Source of the DNA: Candidatus Thorarchaeota archaeon
GTDB lineage: Archaea; Asgardarchaeota; Thorarchaeia; Thorarchaeales; Thorarchaeaceae
Direction of reading: 5' to 3'
NCBI GenBank assembly: GCA_046482545.1
Contig: JAWOEX010000013.1
Coordinates: 32,001 to 96,000, forward strand
DNA: 64,000 bases
Part shown: one piece after another, positions 6,477 to 62,595 of the stretch
How positions within the stretch are numbered: position 1 is the first letter of the stretch
How the letters are laid out: the number at the start of each line of letters is the position of its first letter
The notes under the pieces: model-generated
The model's input: the letters and a program-made list of their open reading frames with translations, nothing else
Told to the model about the DNA's origin: nothing
The model's database searches: none
Position numbers and translations under genes: made by a program

Positions 6477-6526
6477 TAACCTGTTTCTTATAGTTGAGTG
6501 AAACCAACTGAGCCAATCTGTTTTCA
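6477..6526 (-). mobile_element. remnant of dispersed element (copy A, conserved end plus hairpin)
   Basis: TAACCTGTTTCTTATAGTTGAGTGAAACCAACTG matches the end of the 29300-29860 element; 6545-6565 weakly resembles the opposite end. Confidence 0.75.
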
Positions 6527-6683
6527 TATGAAGGTTATCTTAGTCTTACAGCAATTTTGCACTCTGGTACGTCAATCCACTTCTCTCGAGGGAGCTATTA
6601 ATCCTCTTCAATTGTCATCAAATTATCTTACATGAATATCGTTATATCGTAAACGCTCTCCAAGCTACTTGGAGAATTCTTCG

Positions 6684-12594: not shown

Positions 12595-12655
12595 TAACCT
12601 GTTTCTTAAAGATGAATTCACTCTGTTCTTTGTTGTGAGGGATATTTGTTCCTCG
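12595..12655 (-). mobile_element. short remnant of dispersed element (copy B)
   Basis: TAACCTGTTTCTTAAAG matches the conserved element end; the rest is degenerate. Confidence 0.6.
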
Positions 12656-28818: not shown

Positions 28819-28909
28819 GGCCTCCTCTAGGGTTGGTGGTCCGACCCCATGGGCTTCAAACCCATGATGGCACAAGCCATAAGTGTTCGATTCACTGAGG
28901 GGGCCGCCA
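28819..28909 (+). tRNA. selC: tRNA-Sec (UCA), 9/4 fold, encoded CCA
   Basis: 9-bp acceptor GGCCTCCTC/GAGGGGGCC; 7-bp D stem GGGTTGG/CCGACCC; 6-bp anticodon stem CATGGG/CCCATG with loop CTTCAAA; variable arm TGGC/GCCA; 4-bp T stem AGTG/CACT; G discriminator. Confidence 0.97.
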
Positions 28910-28946: not shown

Positions 28947-30215
28947 ATGAGATTTGAAGGAAACAAAACCCACCGCGGCAGCTATTCCCCTTTTGATAGA
29001 CTGGCAGAGAGGTATGATGACTGGTTTGAAGACGATGGACGCTTAATCTTCTCTACTGAAGTGAAGGCCTTCTACACCCTGCTTCCAATGTTGCCTGAAC
29101 CATGGCTCGAAATAGGCGTTGGCAGTGGACGTTTCGCTAAGGCATTAGGAATTAGACTCGGTATTGATCCTTCCGGAAAATTGCTGGAAATGGCGAAACA
29201 AAGAGGAATAGATGTCATACTTGCGCGGGGCGAGGATGGGGTATTCAGGAATGAAACTTTAGGTACAGTGTTTATGATTGTTACTATCTGTTTTCTAGAT
29301 AACCTGTTTCTTACAGTTGTAGCAACTGCATGAAACTTCTGTGTTCCACCCCTCCCCTGCCAGCGTCGCCGCTCCCAAGGCTACCCAGTGGCTCCTTGAG
29401 TCAGCAGGGGCTTTGTCCGCGTTCACCGGAATAGGATTCCTCCCGCGGTCCTGGCTTCTTTCTCCTGTCGTTGTCCCGGGTCATCACTCCGGCGACAGCG
29501 AGGTCTTCCACAGTCTTTGCCACGGCGTGGTCATGATCACCCACCTCAGCTTTGTCACCGCCGCTGAGGAGGTCCATTACGGACAAGGTGAACAGCCGCG
29601 GACTCTCCGGAACCTGATGGGTTTCCTTTGGTGGAGAGTGAGGACTTCTGCTTAGTGGAACGAGTCCACCTCACAGCCTTCGGGGCTGAGCGCTTCTCCC
29701 GTTGGGGAGTGGCTCACCGCCCTAGTCCTACTAGACCGGACTCTCGTACCAGGCCTAATAAACTCCCCTCCAAGGCTACAATAGTGCTTGCAGGAAATGT
29801 TACAGTTATTTTACACTTTTCCACTCGCATTTTTTTAGGATTTTGTAAGATTTCTATCCCTCTAGACTCCCCTATGAAGGTTCTACAGGAGGCTAATCGC
29901 ATCCTCTCCCCAGGAGGTAGGCTTGTCCTTGGGCTGGTCTTACGAGAAAGCCCATGGGGCAAATACTATCGAGAAAAGAAGGCGGATGGACACCCTTTCT
30001 ATGATTATGCCACCTTTTCCACTATCAATGATATCACAACTTTGCTTCAAGAAACGGGGTTTATTATTGAGAAGACTGTATCAACACTTTTCCAAAAGCC
30101 AGGGAATGTCAAGCATACGGAAGAGCCCCGCGAAGGGTATTCACCAAAGGCGGGTTTCACCGTTCTCGTTGCAGCAAAGCGGGATAATGATGCTCCTGAC
30201 GGGAAAGAAGAATAA
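28947..30215 (+). pseudogene. class I SAM-dependent methyltransferase interrupted by a 561-bp element
   Basis: LEIGVGSGRF motif; removing 29300-29866 joins TICFL to DSPMKVLQEANRILSPGG, giving an intact 233-aa ORF. Confidence 0.9.
29300..29860 (-). mobile_element. full-length non-autonomous structured element (copy C), TSD TCTAGA
   Basis: TCTAGA at 29294-29299 and 29861-29866; homologous along its length to 51592-52145 and 62043-62595. Confidence 0.93.
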
Positions 30216-34106: not shown

Positions 34107-34409
34107 TGACCTATTCCTTACAGTTGAGTTATTTTAACCCACTTGAAATCTCTGCGTTTTCCTTCCCCTCCCAGCGTCGCCCCCGAAATCTCCTTCGGTC
34201 TCTGAGTTGGCAGGGCTTTCTCTACGTTCATCGGGATGATATTCCTCCCGCAGTCCAAAATTCCTGCTCCTCACATCATCCCCCGTTCTCAGATCCGGTG
34301 ATAGTGAATTCTTCCACGTCTTCACCACGGCCTACAGATAATCAACATCTCAGCTTTGTCACTATAGCTGAGAAGTCCATTTGGACATAGTGAACAGCCG
34401 CGGACTCTC
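34107..34409 (-). mobile_element. truncated element (copy D)
   Basis: TGACCTATTCCTTACAGTTG end, CTCAGCTTTGTCAC..GCTGAG hairpin, GTGAACAGCCGCGGACTCTC shared with copy C, after which homology stops. Confidence 0.88.
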
Positions 34410-34505
34410 GATAGTCTCAAGGAGGCGATAAAGAACGCAATTTTCATGACTGACCACTAGCCCCCCTGCCTGATCTTGGGGGAAAGATGTTCGGTGGTGC
34501 GACTA

Positions 34506-45909: not shown

Positions 45910-46060
45910 TGACCTGTTTCTTGCAGTTGAATGAGCTCGTGACTGCATAAAACTTCTGTGTTTCACCCTTCTCCTGCCCAGTGTCACCATCATGCCGAAG
46001 TGCCAACCTCAGTTGAATAAAGGCTTTGTCCACATTCCCGGGAATGCTGTTCGTTCTGCA
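45910..46060 (-). mobile_element. truncated element (copy E) abutting the vhuU RBS
   Basis: TGACCTGTTTCTTGCAGTTG...AAACTTCTGTG...GGCTTTGTCC shared with copy C. Confidence 0.85.
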
Positions 46061-50727: not shown

Positions 50728-51651
50728 ATGGATTTGACAGTTGTTGGTCATCTTAGTAGGGACCTCATCATTACGCCAGAGACTCAGAGGGAGGCTATTG
50801 GTGGAGGAACCGCTTATGCTATGCTAGGACCATCGATTGGAGCGAAAACTAGGATAGTCAGCAAGGTGGGTCAAGATTTCGAAGAAGAATATCTGAGCGT
50901 GTTGCGCAATTCAGGTGTGGATTTATCTGCTCTCCACCAAAAATCAGGCAAATCGACCAGATTTGTGAATCGATATGACGAAGAAGGTAATCGTAGTCAG
51001 TACGTGGAGTCAGTAGCACCTGATATAAGTGGCAATGACGTTGATGAGTCAATTCTCTCAGGAGTAATCGTCCATTGCTGCCCTCTTCTACGCGAAATCG
51101 AGACATCACTTCTTAGGCAAGCTGCAGAATCTGCTTCATTAATCTCGCTTGACATACAGGGATACCTTCGCAAGATTCAGGAACAGGAAGTGCGGCTGAC
51201 AGATTGGCGAGACAAGAAGGAAATCCTTCCCCTTGTAGACATCGTAAAGGCTGATGAAAGAGAGCTTGAAGCCGCAACAAGTATCGCTGATGAACAAAAA
51301 GCGGCAGAACACGTCATGGAGTTTGGACCATGCGTGCTTCTTGTAACACGCAACCGTCGAGGATCAACTATCTACACTCCGGCAGAGGCTGTGGATATTC
51401 CAGCGATTCCAGCTGAGGAGATTGTGGATACGACAGGTTGCGGTGATACCTATTCCATTGGCTTTCTTGTGGAATATTCCCGAACCGGTGATTTGTATTA
51501 TTCAGGAATCTTTGCAGCCGCATGTGCATCTTACAATTTGGAGACAATTGGCCCGTACGGGATGCCTTCACGTCAGGATGTAGAATCAAGAGTACGCGAG
51601 TTTTACAAAAATCCTAAAAAATCTTGGTGCAGAAGTGTAAAAGATCTATAA
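50728..51651 (+). CDS. PfkB-family carbohydrate/nucleoside kinase (C-terminus altered by insertion)
   Basis: GGGTAY, DIQG, VDTTGCGD. Confidence 0.92.
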   Translation: MDLTVVGHLSRDLIITPETQREAIGGGTAYAMLGPSIGAKTRIVSKVGQDFEEEYLSVLRNSGVDLSALHQKSGKSTRFVNRYDEEGNRSQYVESVAPDISGNDVDESILSGVIVHCCPLLREIETSLLRQAAESASLISLDIQGYLRKIQEQEVRLTDWRDKKEILPLVDIVKADERELEAATSIADEQKAAEHVMEFGPCVLLVTRNRRGSTIYTPAEAVDIPAIPAEEIVDTTGCGDTYSIGFLVEYSRTGDLYYSGIFAAACASYNLETIGPYGMPSRQDVESRVREFYKNPKKSWCRSVKDL

Positions 51652-52145
51652 GATTTCCTGCAAGCCCGTTTCGGGCAACAAACGAGGGGAGTTTATTAGG
51701 TCTAGTACGGAACCCGGGTCCAGTAGGACTAGGCAAGTGGGCTAGTGCTGTGCACGACGCACGCGGCCGAAAGCTGTGAGGTAGACGCGTTCCACTAAGC
51801 AGAAGTCCTCACTCTCCACACAGGAACTTCATCAGGTTTCGGAGAGTCCGCGGCTGTTCGCTTTGTCCAATTGGACCTGGCCAGCTTTGGTGACAAAGCT
51901 GGGCAGAGTGATAATAACCCCGCCGTGGCAAAAGCTGTGGAAAACCTCGCTGTCCCCGGGAGTGATGTGTCCGGGTCAGGACAGGAGACAGAAGCCGAGA
52001 CCGCAAGAGGGACCGTGTCCTGATGATGGCGGCCAAAGTCCTTGCTTGGCCGGGGGTAGCGCCCTGGTATAGTGGTGACACTGGGCAAGGGAAGGGTGGA
52101 ATACAGGAGTTTCATGCAGTTGCTAAAACTGTAAGAAACGGGTTA
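51592..52145 (+). mobile_element. full-length non-autonomous structured element (copy F), TSD TCAAGA
   Basis: TCAAGA at 51586-51591 and 52146-52151; excision restores pfkB ending ...DVESRIGEYL*. Confidence 0.92.
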
Positions 52146-52218
52146 TCAAGAATTGGAGAGTATCTGTAGGCCAAACAGAAGTTTTTTGATATCTCTTGCC
52201 CGTGGGCGTTACGTACTG

Positions 52219-54539: not shown

Positions 54540-54977
54540 TAAGAGTTCTTGCAGCTTGCTGTTGTTTTTTGAAAGACAAAATGCGATTGATAAGAGTTTA
54601 CTGGACTGTGCCGTGGTGGTTGTATGGGGACTTCCTCACACACATGCCGCAGCTTGAACAGAGATCTTCGACTATGGTCGGTAGCTCACCTCATCTGTAT
54701 GGACCTTCTCAGTAGCGACGAGAAGGCTGGGTTCGGTGATCATGACCACGCCGTGACAAGAGCGGCGGAACAGCTCGCTGTCACTGGAGTGATGACCCGG
54801 AGCACGACAGGAGCAGGAAGTCTGGACCGCGGGAGGAATCCTATTCCAGTGAACGCGGACAAAGCCGCTGCTAACTCAAACGCTGAGAAGTACTTTGAGG
54901 GGATTAACGCCAGTAGAGAAGGAGTGGAACACAAGAATTTCCTCGGTTGAATTCACTCAACTGTAAGAAACAGTTTA
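54540..54977 (+). mobile_element. diverged element (copy G)
   Basis: GGTGATCATGACCACGCCGTG, GGACCGCGGGAGGAATCCTATTCC and CAACTGTAAGAAACAGTTTA shared with copy C; left boundary approximate. Confidence 0.88.
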
Positions 54978-59896: not shown

Positions 59897-59979
59897 CGGG
59901 GTAGCGATACTGACTGGATAGCATGAATATCCAAAATTCTACGGAGTTTCGCATCCACTCAACTGTCAGTAATAGGTCA
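59897..59979 (+). mobile_element. highly degenerate element end (copy H)
   Basis: CGGGGTAGCG...GGAGTTTC...CAACTGTCAGTAATAGGTCAT parallels the end of copy F. Confidence 0.55.
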
Positions 59980-62042: not shown

Positions 62043-62595
62043 TAACCTGTTTCTTATAATTTCGCCAACTGCTTGAAACCTCTGTGTTACGCCCTTGCCC
62101 TTCCAGTATCACCGCCCCCAAGGCTGGTCAGTACCCCTTGTCAGCAGAGGCTTTGTCTGCGTTCACTGCAATAGCATTTTCCTGCGCTCAGGACTTCCCT
62201 CCCCTGTCATAACCCGGCATATCACTCCCGTGACAGCGAGTTTTTCCACAGTCCTTGCCAGGCGTGGTCATGATTACCCGACTCAGCTTTGTCACCGTAG
62301 CTGAGAAGATTCGTGTGGACTTGGTGAACAGCCGCGGACTCTCCAGAGACCGATGAATCTCTCTTGGTGGAGAGTGAGGACTTTTGCTTAGAATGACGCG
62401 TCCTCCTCACAGATTTCGGCCGCGTGCTTCGTACTACTGCACTAACCCCCTTGCCTAGTCATACTGAAGGCGAGTTCCGCAGTAAGTCTAATAAATTCCT
62501 CTCGTATTAGGATATTGACGGGCCTAGAGGAAATCTTACAAATGTTTTACACTTCTACACCCGGACTATGTAGGATGCTGTTAAATTTTGGTTGA
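62043..62595 (-). mobile_element. near full-length diverged element (copy I)
   Basis: Collinear with copy C from TAACCTGTTTCTTA to AGGAAATCTTACA...TTTTACACTT...TAGGAT; TSD not recoverable. Confidence 0.9.

Follow-up and report, generated by a model that had tools for sequence, protein, structure and literature searches.

The ~560-bp mobile element examined here is made up of its two ends and a guide-RNA scaffold for TnpB, the scaffold accounting for ~430 bp of it. Judged from sequence comparison, it is an internal deletion of 8-kb aCas1-TnpB elements that have the same ends and the same kind of flanking repeats. The giant protein encoded by the 8-kb elements is the aCas1 of the published family, and it is probably the transposase. 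The fuller reading, that the element is a deletion derivative of the 550-aa TnpB group of Thorarchaeota aCas1-TnpB elements and would be moved in trans by the giant, is the one that we favor with reasonable confidence. The repeated movement of aCas1-TnpB loci, until now transposons by proposal only, is shown by dozens of gene-less copies with precisely defined ends, together with empty sites and a target motif.

The pairing of aCas1 with TnpB and its likely transposon nature were published from computation (PMC10691335, Altae-Tran et al. 2023), so that the system is not undescribed, as a sequence-only reading of this DNA had supposed. Two Asgard groups were distinguished (Cas1H-Asgard-1 and Cas1H-Asgard-2), aCas1 was called a likely transposase by inference, and the variable stretch before a GTTCACTCA motif downstream of tnpB was suggested to be the guide (PMC10691335). 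The published account describes neither the ends nor a target motif, and it covers neither gene-less copies nor the chemistry. The exact ends, the target motif, the gene-less copies and the link between the flanking hexamer and the right end are new relative to the published family. In the literature searched, no paper was found that tests aCas1-TnpB chemistry or reports these ends, and nothing turned up on TnpB or Cas1-like transposons in Thorarchaeota. Another source for aCas1-TnpB/Cas1H-Asgard loci is reportedly Makarova et al. 2020 (CRISPR J).

Copies of the element and the guide-RNA scaffold

The window, a stretch of 64,000 nucleotides (contig C34:32001-96000), belongs to a genome of 3.05 Mb that is 98.9% complete. 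Its genes have their relatives in Thorarchaeota, and the host is a Thorarchaeote. A genome-wide profile search recovered 104 homologous segments of the element, including 74 left ends and 55 right ends, and 38 copies have both ends. In the window (Table 1), the two intact copies of 561 and 554 bp, with TCTAGA and TCAAGA as their hexamers, lie exactly where the sequence-only reading had placed them. About nine homologous segments had been claimed; those beginning at 29300, 51592, 62043, 54684, 34107 and 45910 are genuine (the last four of these with E from 2e-116 to 9e-20), the one at 6477 is a mini-copy, and those at 12595 and 59943-59979 are weak matches only. Identity among copies is 95% at most, and because the copies are mosaic, a tree built from their full sequences has poor resolution.

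Precise removal had been said to restore the host reading frame at both intact copies. This holds for the methyltransferase gene, the frame of which is unbroken once the copy at 29300-29860 and one hexamer are removed; the case is weak for the 51592-52145 copy, which sits at the very end of a PfkB gene, in its final ~7 codons. At 28819-28905 of the window, the Rfam tRNA-Sec model matches a tRNA.

Table 1. Element copies and associated features in the window (positions are those of the window)
Feature	Position	Strand	Remarks
Non-autonomous MITE-like element, 561 bp	29300-29860	- (RNA sense)	Both ends match the ends of the 8-kb elements
Left flanking hexamer TCTAGA (TCNNGA)	29294-29299	+	Read on the minus strand, begins the predicted guide
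Right flanking hexamer TCTAGA	29861-29866	+	Identical hexamer at sister-species copies with related right-end subtype
Omega RNA (TnpB guide-RNA) scaffold, ~430 nt, 3' GGTTA	29300-29728	-	Fold z, compensatory changes
Subterminal TCTTACA, left (RNA 3') end	29309-29315	+	
Pair of direct (G/T)TTACA motifs, spacing 11 bp, right end	29799-29815	+	
Inverted TCTTACA, 10 nt inside right end, then hypervariable 10-12-nt spacer	29844-29850	-	
Host methyltransferase gene split by the element	28947-30215	+	Uninterrupted in sister species
Other intact copy, 554 bp, oriented oppositely to the first	51592-52145	+ (RNA sense)	TCAAGA at 51586-51591 and 52146-52151
Third full-length copy, older	62043-62595	-	Flanking hexamers decayed, match lost
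Partial copy, element positions 1-295	54684-54977	+	Profile search
Partial copy, element positions 1-325	34107-34425	-	Profile search
Partial copy, element positions 1-147	45910-46059	-	Profile search
Mini-copy, ~100 bp: left end fused to right-end motif, RNA body gone	6477-6575	-	E 0.007 and 0.05
Left-end remnant, weak	12595-12622	-	Profile search, E 0.18
Left-end remnant, weak	59943-59979	+	Profile search, E 0.18

The ends had been described as not being inverted repeats. Terminal inverted repeats are indeed absent, but an inverted heptamer, TCTTACA, is found 9-11 nt inside each end. The right end also holds two direct motifs 11 bp apart, and a highly variable spacer of 10-12 nt precedes the right hexamer.

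Positions 1-428 of the element fold on the minus strand (z -3.45), and compensatory changes were observed in 48 of 113 scaffold pairs among 22 copies. In long copies this region overlaps the 3' end of tnpB and ends at the element end. The fold, the compensatory changes and the overlap with tnpB together identify positions 1-428 as a guide-RNA scaffold, which no Rfam family matches. The supposed subterminal hairpin is in fact the 3' end of this ~430-nt structured minus-strand RNA; that most of the element is scaffold had been overlooked. The whole scaffold is retained in nearly all full copies. The GTTCACTCA motif 3' of tnpB is present in the long copies and in many short ones, and the two window copies have a short loop instead. 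Unlike in the published suggestion (PMC10691335), the variable stretch before GTTCACTCA here forms one arm of a hairpin, and GGTYA-N marks the point after which the guide begins.

The product of the ~550-aa ORF found in long copies is TnpB/Cas12f-like. Its RuvC-II Glu is replaced by Gly, and a conserved Glu lies further on, in E-x-W-T-S. A dead TnpB was considered and rejected, because the conserved Glu in E-x-W-T-S marks the rearranged RuvC-II type, which is probably active (PMC10691335). The 550-aa TnpB thus has a rearranged active site, probably of an active type. The six good TnpB matches in the genome all belong to this family.

The tnpB leader at 16 loci (L001:2833-2930 and 15 others) contains a short crRNA-like unit ending in GGTYA-G, followed by 11-15 nt identical to the locus's own TATA/promoter region ~94 nt upstream. 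Leader guide and promoter vary together in the 16 loci, always behind TTVAT or ATAAT. This identity sets the guide register at one base after GGTYA and predicts TTVAT as the TnpB motif. It also suggests that TnpB may repress its own promoter via the leader guide; the literature search found no paper on such a self-promoter guide in a tnpB leader. By IS605/IS607 logic, a guide taken from the flank should cut empty sites. Empty sites never carry TTVAT, the predicted motif of the 550-aa TnpB, because A is excluded at position +3 (see below).

The 8-kb elements and the giant Cas1-like protein

Several copies in the genome stop at position ~428 and restart at ~480 in the profile search. In long copies, the ~550-aa ORF and a divergent ORF of 1,410-1,655 aa lie between these two breakpoints; across elements, the length of this giant is about 1,400-1,700 aa. 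Three 8.2-kb elements, two in this genome and one in a sister species (L001, L002 and L226), have both ends and perfect hexamer repeats, and besides tnpB and the giant they contain one small ORF at the most. The long same-ended copies encode no enzyme of the Y1, serine, DDE, tyrosine or RT type. The element is therefore mobile, non-autonomous and outside the standard IS classes, with a helper encoded elsewhere, probably in longer, same-ended copies, much as the sequence-only reading had anticipated. Retrotransposition was considered for copies without the 5' side of the RNA and was rejected, as the breaks at 428/480 are the gene insertion point of the long copies. A retroelement or SINE-like origin was likewise set aside, since no RT was found and the remaining truncated copies break off elsewhere than at their hexamer.

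At L008:7510-9329, an AbiEi/AbiEii-like gene pair lies directly upstream of a tnpB that lost its giant. A long copy at L004:12090-12350 is without the usual left end and borders directly on a tRNA gene; other genomes have several copies of this kind.

The giant has no Pfam match, and its N-terminus gave nothing significant in Pfam, ESM Atlas or Foldseek. It is present in 26 of 36 family genomes versus none of the 24 other Asgard genomes searched, and four divergent giants occur in the window's genome. In an AlphaFold model (pLDDT 82.5), residues 8-245 match the Cas1 catalytic domain (Z 13.3, rmsd 3.6, 178 residues), a helical fold for which Z near 13 is reachable by chance. The top 12 rows of the structure search are all Cas1, a casposase included (6opm, Z 10.6), and the next fold has Z 7.8; Foldseek of the giant ranks Cas1 first, though only at E 0.003. 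HHalign of the giant against Cas1 is not significant (0.8%), yet in this alignment E79 and D184 coincide with catalytic motifs of Cas1. E79, H174, D181 and D184 are near-invariant across ~80 relatives of the giant. Weighing against the assignment, the giant lacks the N-terminal domain of Cas1, and the His lies 12 residues off its usual place. The Cas1 domain is followed by a Cas4/RecB-type nuclease-like domain (Z 7.8). A RecA/KaiC fold with a degenerate Walker A was recognized at residues ~598-855 (Z 10.9), and Foldseek gave 67 matches for it at E<=0.001.

The flanking hexamer and the choice of target

A perfect 6-bp repeat flanks 21 of the 38 two-ended copies, compared with 8% when ends of different copies are paired. 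The 21 repeats represent ten different hexamers, all but one of the form TCNNGA, and nearly all of the variation falls in NN. In a sister species, the methyltransferase gene is empty and colinear without a gap, with one CCTAGA at the site of the 29300 copy. Further empty sites likewise indicate a net gain of 6 bp on insertion. This gain agrees with the earlier claim of a true target duplication, but the hexamer tracks the right-end subfamily, so a plain target duplication is not established.

Under plain duplication, the hexamer is expected to be independent of the parent copy. Each right-end subtype instead keeps to its own hexamer, and does so in three species. In a small sample of 26 mosaic copies with perfectly matched hexamers, the nearest neighbor by right end has the same hexamer in 56% of cases versus 18% when shuffled (p 0.0002). 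The figure is 50% when the spacer is left out, and 31% versus 10% without the commonest hexamer, TCTTGA. The nearest neighbor by left (guide) end has the same hexamer in only 15%. In these copies, the hexamer thus tends to pass from parent to daughter copy, unlike in ordinary transposons, and it may be a carried core that needs a match at the target rather than a plain duplication. One right-end subfamily has TCTGTA/TTTGTA at 4/4 right ends, and GTA also closes an empty site of this subfamily; from this slight evidence, the inheritance seems to reach beyond the central two bases.

The target motif is thus TCNNGA, and A is excluded at the third base past the right hexamer (position +3): it was found there in 0/51 sites against a background of 29%, and the element's own left end has A at the corresponding position. 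Beyond the hexamer, the flanks of related copies are no more alike than random ones. Because the hexamer follows the right end and the flanks beyond it are unlike among relatives, guide-directed choice of the target is unlikely.

Three copies with mismatched hexamers have flanks that are not neighbors in the sister species, which marks them as recombinants. A one-strand exchange, with the target supplying the left hexamer and the donor the right, drew on the greater deviation of the left hexamer (11:2). It was dropped, as the three mismatched copies are recombinant and an empty site was found with the sequence of the right hexamer. Similarity between left flank and right spacer gave p 0.12.

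In this genome, the copy at G000:C41:25041-25595 is inverted from an internal TCAAGA to the TCTTGA at its end, and a truncated copy at G000:C2:33141-33450 ends at an internal TCCAGA that equals its own left hexamer. At G000:C20:181322-182439, two copies lie tail to tail with one hexamer in common.

The moving enzyme and related systems

Searches of this genome for serine and tyrosine recombinases, IS110, RT and canonical Cas1 were negative. Tyrosine recombinases (PF00589) were not found in it or its two sister species, a tblastn search of it with 24 serine recombinases gave a best E of 0.03, and eight searched genomes from three copy-rich genera (87-99% complete) yielded no serine recombinase. 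The genome's one Y1 match and its five IS5-like genes lie outside any element copy and have no ends in common with the copies; the IS5-like elements share no sequence with the element either. The giant occurs in 19/19 family genomes with at least three scaffold copies and a serine recombinase in 8/19, a co-occurrence that is partly built in, as giant and scaffold belong to the same element and the genomes are kin. By elimination and conservation, the giant is the best candidate for the moving enzyme. Contigs of public sequencing runs showed no circle junction. Element contigs occur in RNA libraries, where the many copies and possible DNA leave expression unproven.

As a mechanism, we tentatively propose a Cas1-fold transposase with Cas4-like and RecA-like domains that would carry out homology-checked integration via a carried 6-bp core, retargetable by the donor hexamer. 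The giant of the 8-kb copies would act in trans on gene-less copies, binding the TCTTACA motifs, and its Cas4-like domain would cut the flanks. The element would be released with the right hexamer attached, as an overhang or a circle junction, and the Cas1 domain would join the ends to the target by direct transesterification. The carried hexamer would favor a target with the same six bases (TCNNGA), as piggyBac carries TTAA; more speculatively, the RecA-like domain is a candidate for the hexamer check. No Cas1 is known to check homology, which counts against this explanation.

The main rival to the giant as moving enzyme is a trans-acting IS607-type serine recombinase, with a circle junction TC-NN-GA of which NN matches the target, and with the giant as cargo or TnpB partner. 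A second group of elements combines the giant with a ~720-aa TnpB that has an intact D-E-D and a short 3' region (L044-L047, L058-L063, L215-L223; several such loci adjoin tRNA genes), and 11 such aCas1 elements, in other Thorarchaeota genera, have a real IS607 serine TnpA at the left end. The giant can therefore be a passenger, and since copies are at most 95% identical, the moving enzyme could have been lost since; a recombinase lost or unassembled would give inheritance of NN without new chemistry. The concentration of nearly all hexamer variation in NN and the 11-bp-spaced end motifs also look IS607-like, IS607 having short direct end motifs and a 2-bp core exchange (PMC6188088). An altered IS607 donor core returns at the left-end junction (PMC10690162), which corresponds to the end tracked by the hexamer here. 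Against such a recombinase, the TnpA-bearing elements always have the 720-aa TnpB, a GG core at the left end and different motifs, none of the ~15 loci with the 550-aa TnpB has an IS607 TnpA, the searches for serine recombinases described above were negative, and the TCTGTA subfamily points to inheritance of more than two bases. We regard this alternative as rather unlikely.

A casposase-like giant making an ordinary 6-bp staggered duplication at TCNNGA, with the hexamer link due to enzyme variants that differ in NN preference or to recombination among copies, appears less likely again. The net 6-bp gain, the mosaic copies, the unlike-hexamer copies with non-colinear flanks and the four divergent giants would fit it, and casposases make duplications. 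Still, ten hexamers sort by right-end subtype, also across three species, while a single giant type is tied to this right end, and recombination breaks rather than makes matched pairs, the only ones used in the test. Finally, target selection by TnpB with the copy's own RNA through a 5-6-nt seed, with recruitment of the giant, accords with the retained scaffold, a guide that begins within the hexamer and the polar target lacking A at +3, but it is most improbable given that the hexamer follows the right end and not the guide-bearing left end, that flanks past it are no more alike in relatives, and that TTVAT is never found at empty sites.

If the giant is the enzyme, Cas1 transposons would have a second lineage next to casposons, in which a single element unites ancestors of CRISPR spacer integration (Cas1, Cas4) with those of Cas12. 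If the target hexamer is inherited, target choice would follow a rule that neither Cas1 nor DDE enzymes are known to use. With two ends and a hexamer as the minimal substrate and TTVAT as the predicted TnpB motif, the proposed Cas1 transposase becomes directly testable.

The elements resemble the aCas1-TnpB family in their Asgard host, a TnpB with a divergent Cas1-like protein, flanking repeats and GTTCACTCA 3' of tnpB. A tnpB adjoining a highly diverged Cas1 gene is found in the long same-ended copies, the window copy having lost both genes, and L001, L002 and L226 are flanked by repeats, as loci of that family are. Casposons likewise have a Cas1-family integrase, which the putative integrase here resembles by fold (Z 13.3) with no Pfam or profile match, a Cas4-like nuclease and a direct repeat at the site. 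Unlike casposons, the complete L001 and L002 have no family B DNA polymerase (PolB) ORF, terminal inverted repeats are replaced by the subterminal 7-mer, TnpB and a guide RNA are present, and the site is a fixed 6-bp motif; the casposon duplication is ~15 bp.

IS607 and its TnpA-less derivatives share with the element a TnpB with rearranged RuvC-II, a guide RNA at the right end, short subterminal direct motifs and a matching core at both junctions; the 550-aa group differs in having no serine TnpA, a TCNNGA rather than GG core, and exclusion of A at +3. Gene-less copies that keep ends and scaffold recall the guide-RNA-only IS200/IS605 derivatives, from which the element differs by the lack of Y1, the flanking repeat and a scaffold about twice as long. 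DDE IS and MITE elements are unlike it, as no terminal inverted repeats are shared with the genome's IS5-like elements. By analogy only, piggyBac is comparable, since its ends carry a short palindrome, TTAA, that is matched in the target DNA; it differs in its eukaryotic DDD transposase, terminal inverted repeats and invariant site. In another genus, a short copy at L100:1260-1860 has TCTAGAA on either side, with CTGACA taking the place of CTTACA as the motif of its two ends.
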